Of a stretch of DNA of 21,410 bases, positions 4,038 to 21,230 are shown piece by piece (position 1 is the stretch's first letter; the number at the start of each line of letters is the position of its first letter). Position numbers and translations under genes: made by a program. The notes below the pieces were generated by a model. That model was not told the DNA's origin, did not search any database, and saw only the letters and a list, made by a program, of their open reading frames with translations. Origin of the DNA: Candidatus Hydrogenedentota bacterium (GTDB lineage Bacteria > Hydrogenedentota > Hydrogenedentia > Hydrogenedentales > SLHB01); the NCBI GenBank assembly GCA_045863335.1, contig BTVY01000015.1, positions 1-21,410 of the forward strand, read 5' to 3'.

Positions 4038-4784
4038 TTGACCGAGTTCAAGGATCGGACAGTTCTAATCACGGGCGGTACCCGGGGTATCGGGCGCGCC
4101 TGCGCCGCATTGTTCGCCCGCGAAGGCGCGAACGTCGCCATGTGCGGCCGATCGGCCGCGAGCGCCGAGCACGCAGCCGCGGAAATCAGCGCGGAAACCG
4201 GCGGAACGGTTGCCGGATACGAAGCGGACATCGGCAATAGCGATGCCGTGGACGCAATGGTGAAGCAGGTTTCCGAGCGCTTCGGTCCGGTTTATATTCT
4301 CGTAAACAACGCGGGCATCACCCGCGACAACCTGCTCATGCGCATGAAACCGGCCGACTGGTCCACGGTGATTGAAACGAACCTGACCGGCGCGTTCAAT
4401 TGCTGCCGCGCCGTGGCGCGAGACATGGTGAAACAACGCCAAGGGCGCATCATCAACATCTCGTCCATCATCGGCATTCGCGGGCAAGGCGGTCAAACGA
4501 ACTACGCTGCCGCAAAGGCCGGTCTTATCGGATTCAGCAAATCGCTCGCGCAAGAACTCGCGTCACGCAATATCACGGTGAACGTAGTCGCGCCGGGATA
4601 TATCGAAACCGACATGACCGCCGTGCTCGGTGACGACGTGAAAACGATGCTGCTGGACAAGATTCCGCTGCGGCGTCAAGGCACCGGTGAAGATATTGCC
4701 GCCGCCGTGCGGTACTTTGCGAGCGACGGCGCATCGTATGTAACGGGAGCGGTCCTTCAGGTGGACGGCGGTCTGGCGATGTAG
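4038..4784 (+). CDS. fabG: 3-oxoacyl-ACP reductase FabG
   Basis: TGGTRGIG, LVNNAGITRDNLLMRM, YAAAK catalytic motif, VAPGYIETDMT, VDGGLAM; follows plsX; TTG start after GGAAGGGG. Confidence 0.93.
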   Translation: MTEFKDRTVLITGGTRGIGRACAALFAREGANVAMCGRSAASAEHAAAEISAETGGTVAGYEADIGNSDAVDAMVKQVSERFGPVYILVNNAGITRDNLLMRMKPADWSTVIETNLTGAFNCCRAVARDMVKQRQGRIINISSIIGIRGQGGQTNYAAAKAGLIGFSKSLAQELASRNITVNVVAPGYIETDMTAVLGDDVKTMLLDKIPLRRQGTGEDIAAAVRYFASDGASYVTGAVLQVDGGLAM

Positions 4785-4806
4785 TTGCCCGCGCTGTGGC
4801 GCACGA

Positions 4807-6729
4807 TTATAGCGTCTCGGTCGAAATCGCGTAGATATGTACGTCGTGGTACGCGTCGTGGGCAAATAAGGCTTCCCGCAGGGTCCCTTCGCGCGCAAAT
4901 CCAACGGCTTCGAGAAACGCCTGAAGCTCTTCCTCGTAGGATGCCGCTGGCACCGTCAACCTCCGGATCGACTGCTGGCCGCCGGCTTCCTTCAGAATCG
5001 TCCGGAATCCTTTCCGCACGTCGTCCGCCGCGTAGTCGTTGGGCGCGTGCATATACACCCACGCCAGCGCCGTGCCTGGTTCGCGCTCCGGGCGAAGCTT
5101 GATAAGCCCGAAGGGCTCCCCGCCTCGCTTTACCAGAATCATCTCCTGGTCAACCCCGCTCGGATGCAACGCGTCCATTTCGCGATCGTACTTGGTGGTG
5201 ATGAGGACGCCCTTTTCGTTGAACAGGAAATAGGACGCGATGTTCCAATTCTCCCAGTTCATCAGCATTTCCGCGTCAGGTTCTTCGATGGGTTTCACGC
5301 CGACCGTCATGCGAAAGGCCGCGCGCACCATTGTGAACAACGACGGCTTGGCGGTGCGCGATAACGTGTTGTATACGCGCGTGAAGTTCACGCCCTCGGA
5401 CGACAAGACGTTAAACGCGGACACGGCCGACGCCATCCACGCGCGTTGCGCCTCGCACCACGGTTCGTGTGGGGTTCGGTGAGAACCGCTCAGCGCGTGG
5501 TGCACGGCCGTGTTACCGCCGCCGCAAAGATTCCGCGCCCAACACCTCCGGCAAACCCCGGTCGTGGTCGCGCCCACCTCATCAAAACGCGCGCGGGCTT
5601 GCTCGTCAATCACGCCGTCTTCGAGCGATCCCAGCCGGTAGGCATTGATGCCCAAGAAGCGAAAGCTTGGATAAATCCCGCCGTCAGTATCCACGGCCAG
5701 CTCGTTCGTGCCGGAGGGGTCGATTCGGCGGATCGGCGAACCGTCGTAGATCCGGTAAAACAACGGAGCGATTGGATCCAACCGGAAGTATCGTTGCTGA
5801 AGCAGCCGGTTCGCGTAATAGACCGCCGTTTCGCGCAACGCGCCCAGCATGGCCTTGGGATCCAAATCGGGATTCGCAATGTAGGCGCCGTCCAGGTCCA
5901 GTTCGATTGTCGCAAACCCGGCCTTGTCCAACTCGCGCACAACTTCGCCAAACTCGGGATGATTGGGGCGTACAATAATGCGGCCCGTGACTCCGGCCGA
6001 GTCGGGATGAAGAATCTTCGCCAGTTTCGCGAGAGACTCATCGCCCGCCTTGGCCAGCAAGCGGAGATTCGGCAGAATGGCCGAACCTTCCGCGAAATCG
6101 AGTTGCAGGTGAATCGTGTGCCCGTCGAACGCCGCGGGAAGTTTCGATGTTCTGACGTCTAAAACGCGAACTGCCGCCGTCGTCTTTTTTCCCGCCATAC
6201 GGCCGCACTTCACGGCATGCGCGCACAAATCGGCGATCAATTCGGGATTGTGAATGATCTCCTCTTCAAGAAATTCGATGACGATCTCTTTCTGATCCCC
6301 CGCCCGCCCGAAGAGTAAGGAAATGGCATCGCGGCCCGCGTCCCGCGCGTTCGTGGATAGCACCGTCGCCCCTTGACCGAACCAGCCTTTCTTCTTCGAT
6401 ACCGCTTCTTCAGTGTCACGCGGCAACCGCACGGAGATCCGCTTCAACCCGCGCTCTTGCTGGATCTCCTTCTGCAGCTCTTCTTTCTTGCGCGGCGGTA
6501 GAATCGCCCGCGTGGCGCGCAGCCATTCGAGTTCGCCGATGACTTCCTCGAGCTCCTTCACATCGTGCTTGTCGCCGAGCACATGGTAGATGCGATTCAC
6601 CGAGGCATAGGGATAGTGCTCGAGCACATCCCAGGAGATCTCGTCGCACTCGAAGCAAAAGCACGTTTCGGGATCGATGGCGAACCGCCGGTCGTTCTCC
6701 ACAAAACGGTGTAGGGTTTCCTGCGTCAT
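4807..6729 (-). CDS. Degenerate CteB-like RRE / radical-SAM / SPASM protein lacking CxxxCxxC, fused to a C-terminal RimL-type GNAT domain
   Basis: N-terminal about 80 aa resembles an RRE/PqqD-like winged helix (LHRF....RFAID...DEISWDVL...ELEEVIGELEWL). The core follows the SCIFF-maturase pattern without its Cys triad. SPASM segment: ELAVDTDGGIYPS..F.G..YRLGSL.DG and CRRCWARNLCGGG...WC. C-terminal GNAT: FLEAVGFAREGTLREALF...YHDVHIYAI. ATG at 6729 overlaps the permease stop (TGATG). Confidence 0.8.
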   Translation of the reverse strand: MTQETLHRFVENDRRFAIDPETCFCFECDEISWDVLEHYPYASVNRIYHVLGDKHDVKELEEVIGELEWLRATRAILPPRKKEELQKEIQQERGLKRISVRLPRDTEEAVSKKKGWFGQGATVLSTNARDAGRDAISLLFGRAGDQKEIVIEFLEEEIIHNPELIADLCAHAVKCGRMAGKKTTAAVRVLDVRTSKLPAAFDGHTIHLQLDFAEGSAILPNLRLLAKAGDESLAKLAKILHPDSAGVTGRIIVRPNHPEFGEVVRELDKAGFATIELDLDGAYIANPDLDPKAMLGALRETAVYYANRLLQQRYFRLDPIAPLFYRIYDGSPIRRIDPSGTNELAVDTDGGIYPSFRFLGINAYRLGSLEDGVIDEQARARFDEVGATTTGVCRRCWARNLCGGGNTAVHHALSGSHRTPHEPWCEAQRAWMASAVSAFNVLSSEGVNFTRVYNTLSRTAKPSLFTMVRAAFRMTVGVKPIEEPDAEMLMNWENWNIASYFLFNEKGVLITTKYDREMDALHPSGVDQEMILVKRGGEPFGLIKLRPEREPGTALAWVYMHAPNDYAADDVRKGFRTILKEAGGQQSIRRLTVPAASYEEELQAFLEAVGFAREGTLREALFAHDAYHDVHIYAISTETL

Positions 6730-7526
6730 CAATAGGCCCCCAGGGTTCCCTTGTCGCGGCTCCAGTTCTCCATGTATTTGAAACAGGCGATACCCAAGGT
6801 GGTCCAGAGCGCAACGTTAATCAAAAGAAACGCGAACGAAGGATGTACGAAGACCTTCATGCCGATCCCCTGAATTAGCACGAGCTTCAGGCAGATGGAT
6901 GCGTCCGTAATCGGAATGAAATGGGCAAAGCCCATAATGATGGCGGGCAGGTCGTACCAGTCCGGCTTTGCGGCAAAAGCGAGCGCAATCATCCCCATAC
7001 GAACGAGCAGCGTGGCCTGACCGATCTGCTTGAAGACCAGCGTCAGCCCTCCAACCATGAATCCAAATCCGATCAGGTTTAGATACGTCAGCAACAGCAG
7101 CACGAAGGTCGGGAACGGGTCCGCGTGAAGATCGCTGTTCAGCGTCACCGAAACGAACACAAGCATAACCGTCCAGGTCAGAATGCTCACGACGGAGTTG
7201 ACGAAGGATCGCGCAAGGAAGTTGGTAATCAAGCCGTGGGGACTCATGTAAACCTGTTCCAATTCGCCCGTGCGCGCCATGCCCTGCAAACCCTGGCTGA
7301 ACATGCCGACGATGCCAAAGGCAAAAATGCCGACAACGAAACCGAGCGCGTTCTCCGTCTGGTCCGTCGCCCATTCTGTATTCACCGTACCGGACCGAAA
7401 TCCAAAGATGAGCCCGATGAGCATCCCGTAACCCACGATCATGCCCATGAGCGTGGCGAACCAATAACGCCGCATAACGATGAACGCACGGACCAGTTCC
7501 GCCTTCATGACGAGGAAAAAGCCCAC
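6729..7526 (-). CDS. ABC-2 type exporter permease, 265 aa
   Basis: About six hydrophobic segments and an ARTGELEQVYMSP motif typical of ABC-2 permeases; GTG at 7526 preceded by AAGGAAGGA, 2 nt after the ATPase stop. The ORF-track extension to 7895 overlaps the ATPase and is rejected. Confidence 0.85.
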   Translation of the reverse strand: MGFFLVMKAELVRAFIVMRRYWFATLMGMIVGYGMLIGLIFGFRSGTVNTEWATDQTENALGFVVGIFAFGIVGMFSQGLQGMARTGELEQVYMSPHGLITNFLARSFVNSVVSILTWTVMLVFVSVTLNSDLHADPFPTFVLLLLTYLNLIGFGFMVGGLTLVFKQIGQATLLVRMGMIALAFAAKPDWYDLPAIIMGFAHFIPITDASICLKLVLIQGIGMKVFVHPSFAFLLINVALWTTLGIACFKYMENWSRDKGTLGAY

Positions 7527-7528
7527 GG

Positions 7529-8569
7529 TCAATTCCTTCCTTTCGGCGCGTCGGCCTGGGATTCCGTCAACTGCAGGAAGACGCCTTCCAGATTCTGCTG
7601 CCGTTGCGTTACGGTACGGAGCAACAGCCCCTGTGATTGCAGCTGGCCCAGCGTATTGTAAAGCGCGTTGGAACGCTCCGCCTCGTCCGCGGACGTACGC
7701 AAAATGAATCCCGGACCGCCGTCGGAGTTGATAGACTCGACACCCATCACGCCGGGTAAGGCCTGGATGGTCTCGAGGTTGGGCGCGCGATCCAGGCGAA
7801 ATTCGAATCGTTGGTCCGCGAACACGCCGAGCAGTTCCTCCGTCGGCTTGCACGCGACGAGGGCGCCGTCCTTGATGATGCCGATGCGGTCGCACAATTC
7901 CTGCGCGGTACCCATATCATGCGTGGTTACCAAGACGCATTTGCCCTGTTCACGCGTCATCTCAATGACCTTGTCTTTGATGGCGCGGCTGCTTTGCACG
8001 TCTAATCCAGTCGTCGGTTCGTCAAGCAGCAGCACGGGCGGATCGGTGATGAGCGCGATACAAATCGCCAGTTTCTGCTTCTGTCCGCGCGAGAGGCGCC
8101 GCACTTGAATGTCTTTCTTGTCGGTGAGCCCGATAAAGTCCAGCAACCGGTGTGAACGTTCGCGCAAGACCTTGCCTTTCACGTCGCGCAGGTTGCCGAA
8201 GTACGCGAGATTCTCGAGCGGCGTCAGCGGCCAGATGCAGGTACGGGTACCCTCAAGAACAACTCCGATGCGCCGCAACACCTGCAGCCGTTTCTTCTCC
8301 ACGGGAAGGTCGTCGACGAACACCTCGCCGCTGCATGGCTTGACCAACCCGGAGATCATCTTGACCGTCGTCGTCTTGCCCGCGCCGTTGCGACCCAGGA
8401 GTCCGAAGATCTCCCCCGAGCGAATCCCAAACGAAACCCGGTCGACGGCGTGAACGGTCTTCTTCCGGTAGATCGGCCGCCGGCCGGTCTCTTCGTTTTT
8501 GGAGAAGAAGTGGCGGGTGTAGAACGTCTTGTCGACGTCGCGCAATTCTACGAGATACGGACTGCTCAT
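7529..8569 (-). CDS. ABC exporter ATP-binding protein (ABC-2/DrrA-like)
   Basis: Walker A GRNGAGKTT, signature LSRGQKQK, Walker B LLLDEPTTGLD, H-loop TTHD, C-terminal LEGVFLQLT. Confidence 0.95.
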   Translation of the reverse strand: MSSPYLVELRDVDKTFYTRHFFSKNEETGRRPIYRKKTVHAVDRVSFGIRSGEIFGLLGRNGAGKTTTVKMISGLVKPCSGEVFVDDLPVEKKRLQVLRRIGVVLEGTRTCIWPLTPLENLAYFGNLRDVKGKVLRERSHRLLDFIGLTDKKDIQVRRLSRGQKQKLAICIALITDPPVLLLDEPTTGLDVQSSRAIKDKVIEMTREQGKCVLVTTHDMGTAQELCDRIGIIKDGALVACKPTEELLGVFADQRFEFRLDRAPNLETIQALPGVMGVESINSDGGPGFILRTSADEAERSNALYNTLGQLQSQGLLLRTVTQRQQNLEGVFLQLTESQADAPKGRN

Positions 8570-9303
8570 AGGTTCCCCGGTCGCCCCGGCATGTAGGCCT
8601 GTTCGATCGCCTTGGCCGCTTGTTCCTCGTCGCCGAGTTCCTCGATCTTGATGAGGTACTCCAGGTAGGCAATCTCAATATCCCGGAGCGCATGGATAAC
8701 CATCACCAGGATAAAACTCCCCGTAAAGTGATAGAGGATGCCGAGTAGCAAGGCGAAAACAATGAACTCCAGCGAAATGTGCCAGGTGTTCTCAAAGAAA
8801 TGCTTATGCACCACAACAAACGCGGCGGCCACGACCACAACCCCTACTCCGGCCGCAGCCGGAGCTGGCATCCACGCAGCCAGAAAAGCAATCAGGATCG
8901 TCTGCGCGGCGACACGCCATATCAGTTCCTCCGCGACCGCCACGCCAAGAAAGCGGGTCAGCACCACAGGGCTGTCCATCGTAAAATTCCAGATAGGGCC
9001 GAAGTCGAAGAAATGACTCCACGCATCGCGCCAGGAAAGATGGGTGGCCAGCAGGGACAAACCGAAAATAAGGTGCCCGGCGACCAGGCCAATGGCAATG
9101 TATACCGGCGAGACGAGCTGGCGAGAAAAGACCCCCTGGTCCCAACCGATGTACGCGGCCAACCAGAACAAGGGACCCTGCATCAACACGTGTATCATGC
9201 GCGTGCGGCCCCGTGGCTGTCCTTCCGTTTCCATGGGATTTGTGGCAAGCGAAAATCCAACATGCGCCAGGAGGACGACCATGAAAAGCGATTCGAGTAT
9301 CAC
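8566..9303 (-). CDS. CPBP family (Abi / type II CAAX) intramembrane metalloprotease
   Basis: Multi-TM protein with EELIWR (EExxxR), FVVVH (FxxxH) and HALRD (HxxxN/D); overlaps both neighbours by 4 nt. Confidence 0.85.
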   Translation of the reverse strand: MILESLFMVVLLAHVGFSLATNPMETEGQPRGRTRMIHVLMQGPLFWLAAYIGWDQGVFSRQLVSPVYIAIGLVAGHLIFGLSLLATHLSWRDAWSHFFDFGPIWNFTMDSPVVLTRFLGVAVAEELIWRVAAQTILIAFLAAWMPAPAAAGVGVVVVAAAFVVVHKHFFENTWHISLEFIVFALLLGILYHFTGSFILVMVIHALRDIEIAYLEYLIKIEELGDEEQAAKAIEQAYMPGRPGNL

Positions 9304-9932
9304 GAAGACACCTCGTCGGCGACGGCCGGCTGTTTCAGATCGGCGATCATCGTTGCGAGGTCGATTCCCTTGAACTTCTTCTTGAACATCTCGCGAAGCT
9401 CTTCAAACTCGCTCCGCAACAGGCCGTACCCATAGAGGTCGTACAGTTCGCCATCGCGCGCGACGTGTTGCCGCAATACCAACTCGCGCTTGGCGCCGGA
9501 GAGTTCGAAGTTGCGCCAGGATCGGGTATTGAACCCGTAGATGTAGATATTGATGCGATGCATGTTCAGTTCGTGAAAGCAGTACTCGAGCACGCGATAG
9601 AAGGCGATCGTCCCGATGAAGCCGTTCCGGCGCTTCTCCGTGAGATACGAATCGATATTGCAGGAGCGGTTGCGCCAACTGATATGAACCACCGAGAAGA
9701 GGCCCACCGGCCCCAGCTTCTCCGAATCGGCCATGAAGTAGATTCCGCTGGGCATGGCGTGGTTGGCGGACCGGCCCAGCATGCCGACAATCTGTTCGCG
9801 AATCTGCTTCGGCGAACGCGTGGGGTCGCCATACAGAAAACGCTGAAACGCGGGATCTTCCATCCAGGAGACAACCGTATCGAGGTCGTCCCGATCGGCG
9901 CGCCGAATGTACACGCTGGATTTAAGCGCCAT
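9300..9932 (-). CDS. GNAT N-acyltransferase, RimJ/RimL-like, 210 aa
   Basis: YIRRADRDDL, ISWRNRSCNI, EKRRNGFIG (motif A-like), YCFHELNMHRI, FNTRS, YGYGLLRSEF; ATG at 9932 after GGGAG. Confidence 0.85.
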   Translation of the reverse strand: MALKSSVYIRRADRDDLDTVVSWMEDPAFQRFLYGDPTRSPKQIREQIVGMLGRSANHAMPSGIYFMADSEKLGPVGLFSVVHISWRNRSCNIDSYLTEKRRNGFIGTIAFYRVLEYCFHELNMHRINIYIYGFNTRSWRNFELSGAKRELVLRQHVARDGELYDLYGYGLLRSEFEELREMFKKKFKGIDLATMIADLKQPAVADEVSS

Positions 9933-10500
9933 GAGCAACTCCCGCTGTCGCATTCGAATCGTGGGTTTGGCCGCGTGCGGCGTCGAATTCCGCACGCAGG
10001 ATGCCATAACCGTACACGTCACAGGGCGAACCATCACGTAGACCGTGCCCCCGCAAGACGACTTCCCTCCGGGCGCCGAGGCATTCGAGGGCTTGATGCG
10101 CGGCATCGGTGGTGGAGTCCACCCGCGCGCTGACCCGGTGCAGGTTTAACTCGTCAAAACAATACTCCACCATCGCACGAAAGGCGCTCTGATAGAAGCG
10201 CTCGGGTTCAACAACGCCCGCCGCATACACACTGACAGCGCAGGATCGGTTGCGCCAGCTCAGGTCCTGCACGCTGGCAAGTCCGACGGGCCCCCGATCC
10301 TCCGCGGCGCACACGAAATGGCCGGCCGTAGACGAGGGCATCGACATGGCGCCACCCAACAGCGCGAGGATGTGCGAACCCATCTGTTGCTTGATGCGAT
10401 CGTTGTCGCCGTATAGAAAACGCCGAAACGCCGGGTCGCTCAACCAGTCCACGATGACGTCCAGATCGCGCCGTTCAGGCCGTCGAAGCTTCAGCTTCAT
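9922..10500 (-). CDS. GNAT-fold protein, RimJ/RimL-like; paralog of 9300-9932
   Basis: LRRPERRDL, DPAFRRFLYGD, GPVGL, SWRNRSC, YCFDELNLHRV, GARREVVLR, YGYGILRAEF; motif A glycine loop not recognisable. Confidence 0.85.
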   Translation of the reverse strand: MKLKLRRPERRDLDVIVDWLSDPAFRRFLYGDNDRIKQQMGSHILALLGGAMSMPSSTAGHFVCAAEDRGPVGLASVQDLSWRNRSCAVSVYAAGVVEPERFYQSAFRAMVEYCFDELNLHRVSARVDSTTDAAHQALECLGARREVVLRGHGLRDGSPCDVYGYGILRAEFDAARGQTHDSNATAGVAHGA

Positions 10501-11047
10501 GCAGCGGCTCCTTCAAGCGTTTGAGACCCTCTTCGCGGAACAAGGTGAGCGATTCGAGGTTGAAATACTGCCCCTTAGTGTACACCATGTCGCGCTGCAC
10601 GCCGTCGCTCTCGAATCCGCGTGCGGCGAGAAAGGCCCGGTACGCCCGTTCCGAGCTGATGCAGTGGGACTGGAGCTTGTTCATCTTCTTATCGATGAAC
10701 GCCGTTCGCAGAATGAACTGGAACACCTCTTCCGCAAGATTGGTGGCGTAGTACTCGTCCTTCCCAAAGACCAGGACGATTTCCGCGTAGTCGGACTCCG
10801 ACTTGGATCCGCGGAGCACGCAACACCCGCAGACCTCGCCGGTCTTGTCCTCCACGGCAAAGAAGGTCCCCATGACGATATCGCGCCGCCCAAGCATCTC
10901 TCGCACTTCGTCGATGGTAGGAATCATGACTTCCCGGGAAGGACCAAGCAGAAAGGCACGAGGTACACTGGGGTCGTACAATTGCCACAACGCGAATGCA
11001 TCGTCGGGCTCAGCCGACCGGATAACAGCATGTTCCCCTGTAATCAT
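10475..11047 (-). CDS. GNAT-fold protein, RimJ/RimL-like
   Basis: MITGEHAVIRSAEPDD, FFAVEDKTGEVCG, AFIDKKMNKL, RGFESDGVQRD...GQYFN; CoA-binding loop appears degenerate. Confidence 0.8.
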   Translation of the reverse strand: MITGEHAVIRSAEPDDAFALWQLYDPSVPRAFLLGPSREVMIPTIDEVREMLGRRDIVMGTFFAVEDKTGEVCGCCVLRGSKSESDYAEIVLVFGKDEYYATNLAEEVFQFILRTAFIDKKMNKLQSHCISSERAYRAFLAARGFESDGVQRDMVYTKGQYFNLESLTLFREEGLKRLKEPLHEAEASTA

Positions 11048-11184
11048 GCGGAGGTTCCCTGGTCAGATAATCGATTGGTTGCCGGACGGGTCGCGGTCCC
11101 GCTGGCGGACCGTCCGCCCGGGAGGTTTCGCGCGCTTCAGCCGCCCGCACCAGCCCCAACCGCAACACGAAATCATACATTAGG

Positions 11185-11222
11185 AAAAAAATACCGGGAC
11201 TTCAACACTTCCGAAGCCCCGG
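11185..11222 (-). terminator. Intrinsic (rho-independent) terminator between the peptide genes and the GNAT genes
   Basis: Minus strand reads CCGGGGCTTC-ggaagtgtt-GAAGTCCCGG (10-bp stem, one G:U) followed by TATTTTTTT, 27 nt after the stop at 11250. Confidence 0.8.
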
Positions 11223-11249
11223 CCAGTAAACTCTTCGTCGCGCTATCCG

Positions 11250-11387
11250 TCAGGAAGTTGGTGTGACGATCGCATTCTTCTTCGTATACACGTAGTCGAG
11301 CCACGTCTGCCACAGCGCATTGTACAGGTCCGCAAGGGCGTCTGCCTTGGCCATCTTACCCGAGGTAATCCCGCGAATGTGCTTCAT
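11250..11387 (-). CDS. Small peptide B, 45 aa, candidate RiPP precursor: MKHIRGITSGKMAKADALADLYNALWQTWLDYVYTKKNAIVTPTS
   Basis: Strong RBS GGAGGAG 9 nt upstream of the ATG; MKHxxxIT N-terminus shared with peptide A; followed by a terminator. Confidence 0.75.
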   Translation of the reverse strand: MKHIRGITSGKMAKADALADLYNALWQTWLDYVYTKKNAIVTPTS

Positions 11388-11510
11388 GAAACCCATCTCC
11401 TCCAGGTTATCGGGCGTTCCGCCCCGCGCGGAGAGTCTCCGGCCGCAAAATCGGGCCGCCTCTCGAAACACAAGTCTTCGAAAACATTGGCCATCCGGCA
11501 CTGCCGGCGC

Positions 11511-11705
11511 TTATGATTCTGGATTCTTGACCGAGTTGAACTGGGTCAGGGCGCTCAACAAGCCGTCGAAGACGGTGGATGCCGCACCGATAAAGGTGGT
11601 CACCAAATCAAAACCCAAGCTCAGAATCGAAAGCAGAAACGACAAGTCGGTCGTCTCGTTGTTCGCAAGCAGCGGAGTCTTGGTAATCGTCGTAACGTGC
11701 TTCAC
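11511..11705 (-). CDS. Small peptide A, 64 aa, candidate RiPP precursor: MKHVTTITKTPLLANNETTDLSFLLSILSLGFDLVTTFIGAASTVFDGLLSALTQFNSVKNPES
   Basis: GTG at 11705 with GGGAG RBS upstream; first ORF after the consensus promoter; N-terminus matches peptide B. Confidence 0.7.
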   Translation of the reverse strand: MKHVTTITKTPLLANNETTDLSFLLSILSLGFDLVTTFIGAASTVFDGLLSALTQFNSVKNPES

Positions 11706-11787
11706 AATAGTGTCTCCCGCTCGATGTTCGCAGTCTATACTGCTCTGGGCGCACCCCGTTTGGACCGGGGCCGCAGAGGCCAGCGCG

Positions 11788-11816
11788 AGTATAGCACCGC
11801 TCCAACACAGTGTCAA
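11788..11816 (-). promoter_or_regulatory. Near-consensus sigma70 promoter driving the peptide genes
   Basis: Minus strand TTGACA (11816-11811), 17-nt spacer, TATACT (11793-11788), with an extended -10 TG. Confidence 0.8.
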
Positions 11817-11994
11817 CAGTTTCCCAAACAACCGTCACGCAAGCATTTACAGCGCGTTCCAGTTGGGGGCTCACGCCGCGCGTCTCTCACTATTCTACAC
11901 GCCGAAACCCGGCACGTTACCGAACCTCGCCCGGCGAGTCCCCTGCTTTATCTATCATGCCTGGACCGCCGGATAAGTTCCCTTTGGCCACCGG

Positions 11995-13482
11995 TCACGA
12001 CCCGGAAAGTGCCACGCTGTCGTACCCGTGCGTGTATGCGCCCGGCAAATCCGAGTACCCCATCAGGTCGATGTCGATCACGCGTGCCGCCTCGCGACCT
12101 TCGTGGATCGCCCAGACGACCAGCGATTGGCCGCGCCGCGCGTCCCCGGCCGCATAGACCTTTTCCTTGCTGGTCCGGTACGTGCCGTAGTCGGCCTTGA
12201 TGTTTCCGCGCCCGTCCAATTCGAGGTCGAATTGCTTCGGCAATGCATGTTCCGGATGCACGAATCCGAGCGCCAGGAGTACCAAGTCGCATTCCAGCTT
12301 GAACTCGCTGCCCGGAACCTCAATCATCTTCGGCCGGCCGCTGGTGTCGGGCTCGCCCCACTCCAGGCGAACGGCGTTGATGTGCGTTACTCTGCCATCC
12401 TTGCCTTCAAAACTCTTGGTCAGGATGCTCCAGTCGCGTTCGCCGCCCTCTTCATGGCTGGAAGAGGTCCGAAGGATCAACGGCCAATTGGGCCACGGGG
12501 TCTTTTCGTTAAACCCTTCCGGCGGCTTGGGCAACAGTTCGACGGACCATACGTGCTTGGCGCCCTGCCGCAGGCTCGTCCCGTGGCAGTCGGACCCGGT
12601 ATCGCCGCCGCCAAGGACTACCACGTTCTTGTCGGTCGCAACGATCTCTTTATTGTTAATTTTCTTGCCGGATACCCGCCGATTCTGCTGCGTCAAAAAC
12701 TCCATGGCAAAATGAATGCCGTCCAGCTCCCGGCCCGGTATCGGCAGATCCCGCGGCTGGGTGGAGCCGGCGGTAATCAGCACGGCGTCAAACTCGGCTT
12801 CGAGTTCCGGACCCGTGACATCTTTTCCAACGAAGCAACTGCACTTGAAGATGACGCCTTCCTCTTCCATCTGGCGGATTCGGCGGCGCACGACCTCCTT
12901 GTTCAACTTGAAATCCGGGATCCCGTAGAGCAGCAGACCGCCCGGTTCATCGTCGCGCTCGAACACGGTCACCGTATGACCGGCGCGGTTCAGCTGTTGT
13001 GCGGCTGCAAGACCTGCCGGACCGGCTCCCACGACGGCGACTTTCTTTCCGGTGCGCGTCGCGGGCGGCTCGGGCCTGATAAGCCCTTCGTTGAACCCGT
13101 GGTCAGCGATGGACCGCTCGATGAGCTTAATCGTCACCGGTGGCTCGATGATCCCGAGTACGCAGGACGCCTCGCACGGAGCTGGGCAAACGCGGCCCGT
13201 GAACTCCGGGAAGTTGTTTGTGGAGTGCAAGCGTTCCAGCGCCTCTTCCCACTTCAAGTCTTTGACGAGATCGTTAAAGTCAGGAATGATATTGCCCAGG
13301 GGACACCCCGACTGGCAGAAGGGAACGCCGCAGTTCATGCAGCGGTAACCCTGGTCCTGCATCTTCTCGTCGTTGAAGTCCGTCAGAAACTCGTCCCAAT
13401 GCTTCGTACGCTCTTCTTTCGGCGCGTACGGGGGCAGTTCCCTGCCGTATACCATGAAGCCCTTTTCTTTGTTGGGGCGCAT
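11995..13482 (-). CDS. gltD: Glutamate synthase small subunit
   Basis: [69 protein letters not shown]; directly downstream of gltB. Confidence 0.97.
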
Positions 13483-13494
13483 TCGTAAACTCCT

Positions 13495-18048
<4,554 letters not shown>

Positions 18049-18163
18049 GGACAACAGTACCGTCCTTTCTTCAAGCTCTCCGGGGGGAGTCTGCCCGTTT
18101 GGGCCCGCGTAAGGCCGGGAAGATACAATGCACCCTGCCTCCCCGGACAAGACTTGCGCCGCG

Positions 18164-18704: not shown

Positions 18705-19652
18705 GTGTCACCGGACGGTATTTTGGTATTTGGCGGGTCGGGAAGCCCGAATCTCACGAAGAGTATCGCCACCTATCTCGGGGTGGACGTCGGACAAAAT
18801 GAAGTGCTGCGGTTTTCCGAGGGCAACCTCTTCGTCCGGATCCTGGAAAACGTCCGCGGCCGGCGCGTGTACATCGTCCAGTCCACCGCCTTCCCTGCCA
18901 ACGACAATTTCATGGAACTCCTCTTCTGGATCGACGCCTTCCGCCGGTCCAGCGCCGAGAAGATCACCGTCGTCATGCCCTACTTCAGCTACGCCAAGGG
19001 CGACAAAAAAGACGAGCCCCGGGTCTCCATCCGCGCGCGGGTCTGCGCCGACGCTATCGAAGCGGCCGGGGCCGACCGCGTGGTCACCCTCGACCTCCAC
19101 GCCCCCCAGATCCAGGGCTTCTTCCGCATCCCCGTCGACGACCTCTACGCCTTGCCCGTCCTCGGCAAGGCGATCCAGTCCAAGAAACTCGAAGACCTCA
19201 TCGTCGTCTCCCCCGACGCCGGTTTCGTCAAACAGGCCCGGCGCTACGCGTCCTTCCTGAACGTCTCCCTCGCCATCGGCGACAAAGAACGCGCCGCCCA
19301 CGACGAGAACGCCGAAGTCATGCAGATCATCGGCGACGTGGAAGGCAAGACCGCCCTCGTCGTCGACGACTTCACCATTTCCGGCGGGACCCTCGTCGAG
19401 ATCGCCGAAAAACTCGTCGAGCGCGGCGCCAAATCCGTCTACGCCGCCGTCACCCACGGCGTCCTCTCCCCCGGCGCCCGCGAAAAGATCGACCAAAGCC
19501 CCATCGAAAAACTGCTCGTCACCGACAGCATCGAGACCCAACCCGGCCCCCTGCCCGAAAAGGTCGAAGTCGTCTCCGTAGCCCCCCTCCTCGGCGAAGC
19601 CATCCGCCGCATCCACAACCGCGAAAGCGTCAGCGTCCTCTTCCCCGACTGA
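18705..19652 (+). CDS. prs: Ribose-phosphate pyrophosphokinase (PRPP synthetase), divergent type
   Basis: RFSEGNLFVRILENVRG, NDNFMELL, VMPYFSYA, LDLHAPQIQGFF.IPVD, VVSPDAG, VVDD...GGTL, THGVLS, SVAPLLGEAIRRIH..ESVS.LF; GTG start after AAAGGA. Confidence 0.93.
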   Translation: MSPDGILVFGGSGSPNLTKSIATYLGVDVGQNEVLRFSEGNLFVRILENVRGRRVYIVQSTAFPANDNFMELLFWIDAFRRSSAEKITVVMPYFSYAKGDKKDEPRVSIRARVCADAIEAAGADRVVTLDLHAPQIQGFFRIPVDDLYALPVLGKAIQSKKLEDLIVVSPDAGFVKQARRYASFLNVSLAIGDKERAAHDENAEVMQIIGDVEGKTALVVDDFTISGGTLVEIAEKLVERGAKSVYAAVTHGVLSPGAREKIDQSPIEKLLVTDSIETQPGPLPEKVEVVSVAPLLGEAIRRIHNRESVSVLFPD

Positions 19653-19703
19653 GGAAAGGCCTGCTCCCGGATTGAGGCGATGCCCCTTCCCCGACTGAGG
19701 AAA
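19640..19703. repeat. 23-bp period tandem repeat spanning the prs stop codon
   Basis: CTTCCCCGACTGAGGAAA exact at 19640-19657 and 19686-19703, with a 12/18 copy at 19663-19680. Confidence 0.75.
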
Positions 19704-19738
19704 AGCCGCATCCCCAAACCCCGTGCACGCACCAAAAC

Positions 19739-19765
19739 CGTCACCCCCGCGCAGGCGGGGGCCCA
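19739..19765 (+). repeat. CGTC-tagged REP-like palindrome
   Basis: CGTCA-CCCCCGC-gcag-GCGGGGG-CCCA, resembling the widespread GTCATTCCCGCGnAGGCGGGAATCCA-type element. Confidence 0.6.
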
Positions 19766-19780
19766 TCTTAATTCCCCAAC

Positions 19781-19860
19781 GGAGCATGGGCGTCCCGCCC
19801 GTGTACTCTTCCTCCACGATCCACGATCCCCCATTCCGCAATCCGCAATCATCAGCTATC
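19781..19860 (+). repeat. Composite repeat, left copy: GGAG-tagged REP hairpin plus heptamer tract
   Basis: GGAG-CATGGGCG-tcc-CGCCCGTG then gatccac gatcccc c attccgc aatccgc aatcatc; first 38 nt match 21255-21292 at 34/38. Confidence 0.75.
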
Positions 19861-19973
19861 CAAATTGTCAGAATCGCCTTCGCATGATATCCTTCGGCTC
19901 GCCTGTGAGCATCCACACCGCAATCCTCTAGCATTTCTTGTAGTCACACGGCAAGGAGAACTGGGCGCCAAGT

Positions 19974-21230
19974 ATGAGCAAGCAAGCTATCTCGAAACAG
20001 CGGATTGCGGAGCAGCCGGACCCCCTCTTCGACCGCATCGTCACGATTCTCGAGGAAGCACGCGGCAGCGTGGTCCGCGCAGTTAACACGCAGATGGTGA
20101 CGGCCTATTGGCTGATCGGACGCGAGATCGTGGAAGCCCTGCAAGGCGGGGAGGACCGGGCGGAATATGGCAAACAGGTGGTCGAGAATCTATCCGAGCG
20201 GCTGACGGAGCGGTATGGAAAAGGCTTCTCAGAAGTGAGTTTGCAGCGCTTCCGAAAGTTCTATCTCGTTTACAAAGAACGCCTTGCAATTCCGTCCCCG
20301 CCGGGGACGGAATCTGAGTCAAAACCAATTCCGTCCCCAATAGGGACGAATTCGGCAGTCGCGGAAAAACCCCACCCGGCGGGTGGGGAATTCGACAGCG
20401 GCAACGCAATTCCCTCCCCGCCAGGAAGAGAATTGGCGGTCTCTCGAAAAAGTCACCCGCCGGGTAGCGAAACACAAACCTTCTCGCCGCAACTTTCCTG
20501 GTCCCACTACCGGGCGCTGATGCGGGTAGAAGACCCGGCCGCGCGGGAGTTCTACGAGCGCGAGGCCGCCGAATGCGGCTGGAGCAAGGCCCAGCTCGAA
20601 CGGCAGATTCAGTCCTCCTACTACCAGCGCATCCTGGCCAATCGCGGCGAGGCCGGACTGGCCGCGCCAGAGCGCGAGCGCCTGCCCGGCGAACCGATCA
20701 ACGCCGGCCACGTCCTCAAGTCGCCCTACGTGCTGGAGTTCCTCGGCCTGCCCGACGCGCCCGAACTGCACGAGAGCGCCTTCGAACAGGCGATCATCGA
20801 CAACCTGCAATCCTTCCTGCTGGAGTTGGGAAAAGGCTTCTCCTTCGTCGCCCGCCAGAAGCACATCCGACTTGACGACGACGACTTCTACGTAGACCTC
20901 GTATTCTACAACTTCATCTTGAAGTGCTTTCTGCTGATTGACCTGAAGATCGGCAAGTTAACCCACCGCGACGTGGGACAGATGGACGGCTATGTCCGTC
21001 TCTTCGAGGACCGTTTCAAACTGCCCGGCGACAATCCCACCATCGGCCTGATTCTGTGTTCCGACAAAGGCGAAGCCGTGGCGAAGTATTCCGTGCTGAG
21101 CGAAGGCCGCCAGATCTTCGCCTCCAAATACCTGCAATTCCTACCCAGCGAAGAAGAACTGCGGATCGAAATCCAGAAGGAGCGCAAATTGATCGAGGCG
21201 GCTTTGGAGGAAGAGAAAAACACCGGCTAA
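19974..21230 (+). CDS. yhcG: YhcG / DUF1016 family PD-(D/E)XK nuclease-domain protein
   Basis: AVNTQMVTAYWLIGREIVE, RAEYGK, LSWSHYR, AREFYE.EA...WS...LERQI, LKSPYVLEFL, FLLELGKGFSFVARQ, YVDLVFYN, LIDLK, GQMDGYV, DNPTIGLILC. Confidence 0.93.
   Translation: MSKQAISKQRIAEQPDPLFDRIVTILEEARGSVVRAVNTQMVTAYWLIGREIVEALQGGEDRAEYGKQVVENLSERLTERYGKGFSEVSLQRFRKFYLVYKERLAIPSPPGTESESKPIPSPIGTNSAVAEKPHPAGGEFDSGNAIPSPPGRELAVSRKSHPPGSETQTFSPQLSWSHYRALMRVEDPAAREFYEREAAECGWSKAQLERQIQSSYYQRILANRGEAGLAAPERERLPGEPINAGHVLKSPYVLEFLGLPDAPELHESAFEQAIIDNLQSFLLELGKGFSFVARQKHIRLDDDDFYVDLVFYNFILKCFLLIDLKIGKLTHRDVGQMDGYVRLFEDRFKLPGDNPTIGLILCSDKGEAVAKYSVLSEGRQIFASKYLQFLPSEEELRIEIQKERKLIEAALEEEKNTG
20289..20474 (+). repeat. 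Five in-frame palindromic repeat units inside yhcG
   Basis: Units start at 20289, 20328, 20367, 20409 and 20448 and encode IPSPPGTES / IPSPIGTNS / KPHPAGGEF / IPSPPGREL / KSHPPGSET. Unit 1 is an 11-bp perfect stem; unit 3 is an 8-bp perfect stem. Confidence 0.8.

Follow-up and report, generated by a model that had tools for sequence, protein, structure and literature searches.

The stretch of DNA analysed here, referred to below as the window, covers 21,410 nucleotides of Candidatus Hydrogenedentota bacterium (GenBank assembly GCA_045863335.1, contig BTVY01000015.1, positions 1 to 21,410) and corresponds to contig C15 of the source genome G000, which measures 6.75 Mb and is 99.4% complete. 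Our subject is a minus-strand unit running from 11816 down to 4807, in which a promoter is followed by two small peptide genes (pepA and pepB), a terminator, three GNAT genes (GNAT1-3), a gene for a CPBP protease, the ATPase and permease genes of an ABC transporter and, finally, a gene for a 640-residue fusion protein that appears to join a catalytically dead radical S-adenosylmethionine (SAM) maturase to a GNAT domain. The features of the unit are as follows:

11816-11788, minus strand: sigma-70-like promoter (TTGACA, 17 nucleotides, TG, TATACT; 11/12 matches), upstream of pepA
11705-11511, minus strand: pepA, precursor of 64 amino acids with a GTG start and an MKH-type leader, lineage-specific type
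11387-11250, minus strand: pepB, precursor of 45 amino acids, universally conserved type with an MKHI.. leader, an aromatic amphipathic core and a KKN(E) motif
11223-11193, minus strand: intrinsic-terminator-like hairpin (13 pairs plus T7) between pepB and GNAT1
11047-10475, minus strand: GNAT1, 190 amino acids, core gene (PF13420, 30.5 bits against a cut-off of 24.3)
10500-9922, minus strand: GNAT2, 192 amino acids, apparently a lineage-specific duplicate of GNAT3 (PF13302, 46.6 bits against a cut-off of 25.4)
9932-9300, minus strand: GNAT3, 210 amino acids, core gene (PF13302, 54.1 bits against a cut-off of 25.4)
9303-8566, minus strand: CPBP (Rce1-like) intramembrane glutamic protease (PF02517, 35.6 bits against a cut-off of 22.4)
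8569-7529, minus strand: ABC ATPase, DrrA-like, with a C-terminal extension (PF00005, ABC_tran, 100.4 bits against a cut-off of 25)
7526-6729, minus strand: permease, 265 amino acids, probably of ABC-2 type (ABC2_membrane feature likeness 0.98)
6729-4807, minus strand: fusion protein, 640 amino acids, ATG at 6729, with a CteB/ScfB-like N-terminus and a GNAT-like C-terminus

All of these parts were present where a first-pass annotation, made from the DNA letters, had put them, and the junction sizes that it gave were confirmed as well: among the seven large genes there are overlaps of 26, 11, 4 and 4 nucleotides, a gap of 2 nucleotides and a 1-nucleotide overlap in TGATG. The combination of precursors, leader recognition, protease and exporter had been taken as the logic of peptides made on the ribosome and modified post-translationally (RiPPs), and this reading of the layout is supported. 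Two promoter-like sites were found between 10900 and 12100, compared with 0.4 +/- 0.6 in shuffled sequence. The hairpin after pepB is likely to be an attenuator that sets the peptide-to-enzyme ratio, with peptide transcripts in excess; in a simple test, 7 of 15 loci had a comparable hairpin and T-run after the gene of the pepB type, so the feature is not universal.

The 640-residue fusion protein

Numbered from the ATG at 6729, the fusion protein can be divided as follows:

Residues ~1-95: winged helix resembling a RiPP recognition element (RRE), with the invariant C23-x-C25-x2-C28
Central part: radical-SAM-like barrel without CxxxCxxC and without GGE
Following part: SPASM remnant in which only C393, C396, C402 and C425 are kept
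Residues ~458-472: disordered linker
Residues ~475-640: GNAT domain

In Pfam the fusion had no match at E<=0.01, neither to the Radical_SAM nor to the SPASM model, and its C-terminus reached a GNAT model only at E 0.044. Since neither of the two former models matches, Pfam-based mining for radical-SAM RiPP enzymes would miss the whole fusion family. Among the NCBIfam models, the ScfB-related and SCIFF-maturase models came out on top, and together with the nif11-maturase, PapB and QhpD models they all stayed far below their cut-offs, while the SPASM domain model of the same collection gave 36.4, above its cut-off of 27. The sole sequence match in the PDB was CteB, a SCIFF maturase (5wgg_A, E 8.6e-19, residues 7-431). 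An AlphaFold model built from 45 homologues (predicted local distance difference test, pLDDT, 86.1; predicted template-modelling score, pTM, 0.69) likewise had CteB as its best fold match (E 1e-18, template-modelling (TM) score 0.67-0.70), and the part after the linker matched the GNAT folds of SpeG, RimL and RimJ (TM 0.7-0.79).

The alignment with CteB shows what has been lost. The radical-SAM ligands C104, C108 and C111 of CteB face non-cysteine residues in the fusion, and CxxxCxxC was found in 0 of 118 full-length fusion homologues. GGE is the SAM-binding motif of radical-SAM enzymes; the FFGGEP of CteB is aligned to FLEEEI in the fusion, so that GGE has become EEE. According to a passage of PMC10177961, CteB holds its first auxiliary cluster (AC1) by C344, C362 and C413 and its second (AC2) by C400, C403, C409 and C432. 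The AC1 ligands face a gap, a serine and an asparagine in the fusion, and the AC2 ligands face C393, C396, C402 and C425, all four of which are 100% conserved among the 118 homologues. The fusion therefore retains only the four AC2 residues of the seven-cysteine SPASM set for two auxiliary clusters. The N-terminal triad C23-x-C25-x2-C28 (C-F-C-F-E-C, window 6661-6644) is 99% conserved in the same homologues and absent from CteB. The length of ~640 amino acids is kept throughout this set, and many residues, including seven cysteines, are invariant.

The nearest non-fused relatives, at ~25% identity, still carry the radical-SAM motif (CNLRCKYC and similar forms of CxxxCxxC) in six out of six cases examined (P0171, P0179, P0180, P0181, P0183 and P0184), and GGE is invariant across 19 active relatives. 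Three distant fused members (P0157, P0159 and P0168) have no CxxxCxxC; with the fourth SPASM cysteine still in place and no N-terminal triad, they look like intermediates.

Judged from these comparisons, the fusion is descended from a SCIFF/ranthipeptide maturase (ScfB/CteB) which has lost its radical-SAM cluster, and the loss of CxxxCxxC, of GGE and of the AC1 ligands indicates that it is catalytically dead as a radical-SAM enzyme, as the first-pass annotation had held. The same annotation had the radical machinery dropped, which is right for the radical-SAM cluster and goes too far for the metal sites as a whole, the AC2 ligands and the N-terminal cysteine triad being invariant. The AC2 site appears to have been retained under strict selection and probably still holds one [4Fe-4S] cluster; by analogy with CteB, C393, C396, C402 and C425 would come together in three dimensions.

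Precursor peptides and their leader

The products of pepA and pepB begin with V/M-K-H-[VI], and the leader of the MKH peptides in general takes the form M-K-H-[IV]-[KR]-x-[ILVM]-[ST]-[KR]..P..A. In pepA the MKH-type leader is followed by a long hydrophobic/amphipathic core, a lysine and a short polar tail. The 46 operon-proximal peptides that we collected share this plan: a leader of ~15 residues ending in ..P..A[QD], a hydrophobic/amphipathic stretch, a lysine usually followed by E, D or K, and a polar tail. In 33 of the 46 the longest stretch free of K and R (median 21.5 amino acids) ends in lysine, with a tail of median 8 residues, and 11 of the remaining 13 are of the pepB type, with WRAW breaking up the helix and KKNE, or a close variant of it, further on. 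Most loci have between 0 and 5 further MKH peptides upstream. The pepB type accounts for 143 clusters in the protein collection, which are named 'hypothetical protein' where described at all.

For comparison of the leaders we used 80 metagenome loci of active ScfB-like relatives, obtained by scanning with an alignment as query; P0171 alone as query gave no match in the metagenome contigs. A small cysteine-rich (SCIFF) open reading frame (ORF) lies just upstream in 71 of the 80 loci, with the consensus M-K-[HR]-I-K-T-[LI] among 47 unique ones, and 29 of 64 such ORFs fit MKH[IVLM]xx[LIMV][STN]. The leader of the MKH peptides starts with M-K-H-[IV]-K-x-[LI]-[ST], the same as in genuine SCIFF precursors, and the likeness goes no further than the first 8-9 residues. 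No MKH peptide of G000 was matched by the SCIFF model TIGR03973 at E<=1 (the best match of the genome, E 0.8, lies elsewhere), so membership of these peptides in the SCIFF family is ruled out. They also differ in composition, 38 of the 46 being free of cysteine compared with six cysteines in ~45 residues of SCIFF precursors. Thus the leaders may be called SCIFF-like, as they were in the first-pass annotation, for their first residues and no further. No Pfam or NCBIfam family was matched by the MKH peptides, and in the PDB pepB gave chance-level matches to ModA only (E >=0.66) and an MKH peptide from contig C1 of G000 gave none.

Two cysteines occur in five of the operon-proximal peptides, and in four of these they are spaced by 10-11 residues and precede the hydrophobic helix (L039:11215-11379, L042:7820-7987, L044:7886-8065 and L046:10715-10903), which makes a disulfide possible.

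That leader recognition has been kept, another claim of the earlier annotation, is backed by a complex model. With both the fusion and pepB entered as alignments, the model scored 0.77, whereas the best of three controls reached 0.01; 58 of 80 solved complexes attain this mark, as do 2 of 110 mismatched pairs. A CteB-CteA complex has been solved, and the pass may therefore be a sign of likeness and no proof of binding. At least 63% of contacts were shared between runs, and the pLDDT of the partner was at least 43. Residues 1-11 of pepB came to lie on two parts of the fusion's RRE, residues 23-29 with the CFCFEC strand and residues 59-70, so that the C23/C25/C28 triad sits on the very RRE beta-strand that pairs with the leader. 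On this model, recognition of the leader by the fusion appears to be retained. The idea that His3 of the leader completes a metal site with the triad is unsupported, as the distant fused members lack the triad, yet their genome has MKH peptides (L047).

The leader is not confined to the operon. A strict leader pattern was found in 15 ORFs of G000, compared with 1 in the reversed genome, and 14 of the 15 lie outside the operon, on contigs C1 (five, Lys/Pro-rich), C22 (three), C3, C8, C24, C31, C47 and C56. At the DNA level the leader start gave 341 matches in 135 Hydrogenedentota genomes against 8 for a backwards control, and only 7 in all the 11 fusion-less genomes together; these counts are given without a statistical test, the genomes being related and hence not independent. 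Among 20 proteins flanking seven of the dispersed loci, none belongs to a peptide-modifying or maturase family; they include an ECF sigma factor and a TPR protein, a UvrD helicase, a sulfatase, AmtB and P-II, AcrB and a GDSL lipase. This lack of modifying neighbours points to one central processing line for scattered precursors.

Two of the dispersed loci are of interest in their own right. At C22:64541-67756 of G000 (L213:2542-5757), three MKH ORFs with Trp-rich cores lie directly downstream of genes for an ECF sigma factor and a 527-residue TPR protein, and the trio may be a regulated substrate sub-family. At C1:111311-115024 (L212) there are five MKH ORFs of 31-39 amino acids with Lys/Pro-rich cores (KPVKPK repeats) and no adjacent maturase; such peptides could be polyamine-like targets for SpeG-like GNATs.

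Distribution and conservation in Hydrogenedentota

At E<=1e-10 the fusion gene was found in 124 of 135 Hydrogenedentota genomes, comprising 83 of the 86 high-quality genomes and 61 of the 66 genera, mostly as a single copy and without internal stops. Among 1.84 billion cluster representatives only 50 relatives were found at E<=1e-30, and next come ordinary maturases of 450-500 amino acids. When all GTDB species were scanned, the titles of the best 80 loci were almost entirely Hydrogenedentota, with some 'Nitrospiraceae' labels and three odd titles. Operon records titled Nitrospiraceae/Nitrospirales, Bathyarchaeia, Robiginitomaculum or FCB group (L051, L062-L066, L068, L111 and L127) probably reflect automatic labels or binning errors.

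GNAT3 is present in 116 of the 135 genomes and is also missing in 10 of the 11 that lack the fusion, the exception being G073 (88% complete), which has GNAT3. Neither fusion nor GNAT3, and almost no leader-pattern matches, were found in G037-G039, G042 and G044-G048 (family f7) or in G002 (f15), G046 giving a weak fusion match at E 8e-12; for family f7 and the deep branch f15 this looks like a clean loss of the whole system, which would make these genomes useful for comparing physiology with and without it.

Gene order was compared in 20 loci from 20 genomes, with the small peptides detected by tblastn. The fusion and the permease were each present in 20 of the 20 loci, the ATPase, CPBP and GNAT3 in 19 each and GNAT1 in 18; a pepB-type peptide was found in 16, whereas GNAT2 as a separate gene and a pepA-type peptide were found in 3 each. 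The order peptide(s)-GNAT1-GNAT3-CPBP-ATPase-permease-fusion is conserved. In one genome (G072) the operon is split, with permease and fusion on C42:63142-64983 and GNAT3 plus two MKH leader-start DNA matches on C43:296326-298273. From the per-gene counts and the kept order, the ancestral core set would be one peptide type (the aromatic pepB), two GNATs, CPBP, the ABC transporter and the fusion. The first-pass annotation had asked whether three GNATs, CPBP, ABC-2 transporter and MKH peptides co-occur. They do so for GNAT1, GNAT3, CPBP, the transporter and the fusion, with MKH peptides as neighbours, and the threefold GNAT set turned out to be lineage-specific.

Identities were compared pairwise among four families. 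The most conserved product of the operon is the pepB-type peptide (64-87%), followed by the permease (64-68%), the ATPase (62-74%) and GNAT3 (54-74%), which we call the best conserved enzyme; CPBP (36-53%), GNAT1 (35-50%) and the fusion (26-43%) vary more. We take these sequence data to mean that the operon is a vertically inherited, near-universal property of one phylum rather than a sporadic biosynthetic cluster. Given this near-universality, the stable synteny and the fact that the lead peptide is better conserved than the enzymes, the products are probably of use to the cell itself, as a signal, an envelope peptide or a surface-active peptide, and probably not a strain-specific antibiotic.

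These results bear directly on the possibility of a bacteriocin-plus-immunity locus, in which the MKH peptides would be unmodified pore-forming or amphipathic peptides, CPBP, ABC-2 transporter and GNATs would protect the producer, and the dead maturase would be a decaying relic. The hydrophobic or amphipathic helices of ~20-30 residues in the pepA-type cores fit such a locus, as do the several tandem and variable peptide genes per locus, and immunity is a known function of CPBP 'Abi' proteins and of ABC-2 transporters, while MccE-type GNATs are known to detoxify peptides. The fusion is however not decaying, as its constant length and invariant residues in the 118 homologues show, the whole operon is kept in conserved order in the 124 of 135 genomes, the leader is modelled on the RRE, and a pepB type that is better conserved between families (64-87%) than the enzymes (26-74%) is the reverse of a diversifying toxin. 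We therefore regard this explanation as distinctly improbable.

A related question is whether the product of the pepB type could be a secreted autoinducer, with the operon as its synthase and exporter and the variable peptides as accessories. This concerns the role of the system and is compatible with the pathway proposed below. A passage of PMC8326336 takes the spread of SCIFF in Clostridia as an argument against an antimicrobial role and lists quorum sensing among the roles, proposed for solventogenic Clostridia. The high conservation of the pepB type would fit a signal, as would the C22 trio with its ECF sigma factor and TPR protein immediately upstream. On the other hand, no receptor or two-component system was found as a conserved neighbour in the 20 loci (loci compared only with the proteins of the window), known small autoinducers do not resemble an aromatic amphipathic helix of 25 residues, and a single signal is difficult to reconcile with the many different substrates in each genome. 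A signalling role is thus rather unlikely in our judgement.

A proposed maturation and export pathway

GNAT1 gives weak cross-matches to the C-terminus of the fusion, of whose GNAT domain it is a distant paralogue. GNAT2 is 41-46% identical to GNAT3 and appears to be a recent, lineage-specific copy of it. The nearest solved relatives of the standalone GNATs are SpeG-type diamine acetyltransferases (for GNAT3, 8fv0 SpeG at E 2.5e-10), and the GNATs look SpeG/RimL-like, i.e. like acetyl transferases. GNAT3, as the most canonical of the set, is most likely the active acyl transferase, and GNAT1 and the fused GNAT may be non-catalytic partners because their acetyl-CoA loops look degenerate. The first-pass annotation had considered amphipathic (lipo)peptides as products; since fabG and plsX flank the operon in only 1 of the 20 loci, that of the same genus, the '(lipo)' part was dropped.

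When the translation of CPBP was read by eye, EExxxR, FxxxH and HxxxD were present, in agreement with what we take to be the motifs of the family (EExxxR, FxxxH, HxxxN/D). Its only NCBIfam matches were MrtJ (E 2.9e-4) and myxosortase-core (E 9.8e-3), both far below the cut-offs. The ABC ATPase is DrrA-like (TIGR01188, 223 bits, below the cut-off of 312). For the permease no Pfam match was obtained even at E<=10; it resembles ABC2_membrane clusters in the language-model feature search of the ESM Atlas (0.98), and this likeness together with the DrrA-like ATPase makes it probably an ABC-2 permease.

We favour, with slightly better than even confidence, the reading that the unit is an operon for the maturation and export of peptides, ancient and vertically inherited in Hydrogenedentota, which evolved from a SCIFF/ScfB (ranthipeptide) pair and works as follows. 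The short SCIFF-type leader of the precursors would be bound as a beta-strand by the N-terminal RRE of the fusion. No longer able to cleave SAM, and probably holding one [4Fe-4S] cluster at the AC2 site, the fusion would serve as a scaffold that holds the substrate and offers its core both to the GNAT domain in the same chain and to the standalone GNATs. These would N-acylate the peptide, most likely by acetylation, with GNAT3 as the acyl transferase and GNAT1 and the fused GNAT perhaps as non-catalytic partners. The acylation would likely take place on the conserved lysine at the close of the hydrophobic core, or on the N-terminus that is exposed once the leader has been removed. The lysine is a candidate acceptor because 33 of the 46 K/R-free stretches end in it and because a passage of PMC8784127 describes Lys/Arg at core ends of selidamide precursors as GNAT sites. 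CPBP would trim the peptide by removing the leader, or the polar tail past the lysine, and the DrrA-like ABC transporter would export the product. The substrates would be the universal aromatic amphipathic pepB type, the variable hydrophobic-helix pepA types and probably the orphan MKH ORFs. The data show the anatomy of the unit, the loss of the radical machinery, the synteny throughout the phylum and the leader family with its kinship to SCIFF, whereas binding of the leader to the RRE is modelled and we infer the acylation with its site and donor, the cleavage, the export and the physiological role.

The weak matches of CPBP also allow a different use of the same parts, in which CPBP cuts off the tail in the manner of MrtJ or myxosortase, the lysine is acylated, the peptide is anchored in the envelope and the ABC transporter flips or extracts it. 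The plan of a ~21-residue hydrophobic helix, a lysine and a polar tail of median 8 residues agrees with envelope sorting, as does the universality of the system in the phylum and the identity of the only two NCBIfam models matched. MrtJ and myxosortase systems however use C-terminal tripartite signals on large proteins, not N-terminal leaders on peptides of 40-60 residues, there is no linked gene for a lipid donor, and the CPBP matches are far below the cut-offs. We consider envelope sorting improbable.

In favour of the maturation and export pathway, contigs of RNA libraries from four studies lie on the window stretch and cover the peptide genes: those of run X1 extend over 4608-12100 and thus over the whole operon, run X2 gave a 959-nucleotide contig over the peptide region that is its deepest contig, and of the operon only a peptide gene was represented in run X6 (a 204-nucleotide contig on pepB) and in run X8 (a 211-nucleotide contig on pepA). 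Contigs cover 11530-11729 at pepA and 11244-11447 at pepB. Several points, however, weigh against the pathway. Such contigs attest presence only, are silent on level, strand and transcript ends, and may stem from DNA carry-over, and stretches left uncovered carry no weight as evidence; no expression ranking was made from the runs because they give contigs only and were chosen with this stretch. The nearest solved relatives of GNAT3 acetylate polyamines, not peptides, and when alignments were judged by eye, GNAT1 and the fused GNAT did not show the usual Gly-rich acetyl-CoA loop, so that some or all GNAT domains may be inactive. An acyl-carrier or fatty-acid gene was not found as a conserved neighbour in the 20 loci. 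By analogy with other systems, CPBP and the ABC-2 transporter need not be parts of maturation and export, as both CPBP ('Abi') proteins and ABC-2 transporters are also known as bacteriocin immunity factors and an immunity role is conceivable here. The scattered MKH ORFs are predictions from sequence, 2 of the 20 loci (L040 and L048) have no MKH peptide within 1.5 kilobases upstream, and the complex-model pass may, as said, be owed to the solved CteB-CteA complex and not to this pair.

The closest known system is the SCIFF/ranthipeptide pair (TIGR03973 with ScfB/CteB, TIGR03974), with which the operon shares the N-terminal RRE, the barrel and SPASM fold with the four AC2 cysteines, the leader start M-K-H-[IV]-K-x-[LI] and, as far as a passage of PMC8326336 describes it, a clade-wide rather than sporadic conservation. 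It differs by having no radical-SAM cluster, GGE or AC1 ligands, by precursors that are largely free of cysteine and unmatched by TIGR03973, and by the addition of a fused GNAT domain, standalone GNATs, CPBP and the ABC transporter.

With the selidamides and other GNAT-acylated RiPPs (kamptornamide, phaeornamide, nostolysamides) it has in common leader-bearing ribosomal peptides next to GNAT maturases, according to passages of PMC8784127 and PMC13060382, and a lysine at core ends as acceptor, according to the former. Those systems have NHLP/Nif11 leaders and GNATs of a PF00583-type clade and are scattered over phyla, whereas the leader here is of SCIFF type and the GNATs are SpeG/RimL-like. 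In Pfam and NCBIfam comparisons, made without a tree, the MKH peptides matched no NHLP or Nif11 family, and the GNATs matched PF13302 and PF13420, not PF00583. Here there are also two to four GNAT domains, one of them on a dead maturase, and a fatty-acyl donor is not indicated.

Elp3 likewise joins a radical-SAM fold to a GNAT (lysine acetyltransferase) fold in one chain; its cluster is active, it has neither an RRE nor a SPASM domain, it acts on tRNA, and it is absent among the fold matches listed for the fusion. Small amphipathic helical peptides together with an ABC-2-like exporter and/or CPBP are known from phenol-soluble modulins with Pmt, from class II bacteriocin loci with CPBP 'Abi' immunity and from SagE of streptolysin S, but these are species- or strain-level traits without the RRE scaffold or GNAT set, not phylum-wide ones.

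The pathway is therefore RiPP-like in its logic, which is of a known kind, and what appears to be new is the architecture of an RRE with an AC2-only dead maturase and GNAT, the cysteine-free precursors with SCIFF leaders and the phylum-wide status. In agreement with the first-pass annotation, which knew of no class with this gene set, full-text searches covering few subscription journals returned no description of the operon, of a dead SPASM-GNAT fusion or of Hydrogenedentes RiPPs, and supplementary tables of RiPP surveys (e.g. PMC10288494) could still list the family. A bolder claim would be that of a new RiPP-like class, in which a radical-SAM maturase has been turned into a non-radical one-cluster scaffold that reads the leader, recruits GNATs and serves a genome-wide SCIFF-leader family through one CPBP/ABC line as core equipment of an uncultured phylum. 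We regard this as possible but on balance doubtful. If it is true, the aromatic helix of the pepB type would be a lineage-defining signal, a cofactor-like peptide or an envelope peptide.

A second, independent lineage that keeps a SCIFF-derived system phylum-wide with replaced chemistry offers a new angle on the function of the SCIFF peptides conserved across Clostridia. If borne out, the fusion would be a natural RiPP maturase turned pseudoenzyme, consisting of a leader reader, one auxiliary cluster and a new catalytic domain, which would show how chemistry can change with recognition kept. For Hydrogenedentota, known almost only from metagenomes, the operon can serve as a marker of the lineage and is a candidate for a part in surface, signalling or surfactant biology.

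As to the surroundings of the operon, gltB-gltD (glutamate synthase) lie directly upstream of the peptide genes, at 11995-18150 in the window. The same genes are upstream in 7 of the 20 loci, from three families (L031, L033, L035, L036, L039, L042 and L049), and we read the adjacency as an old synteny that marks a stable chromosomal site, not a function. Further large ORFs are located towards the window ends, at 110-2053 and 18708-19934 on the minus strand and at 19974-21230 on the plus strand.

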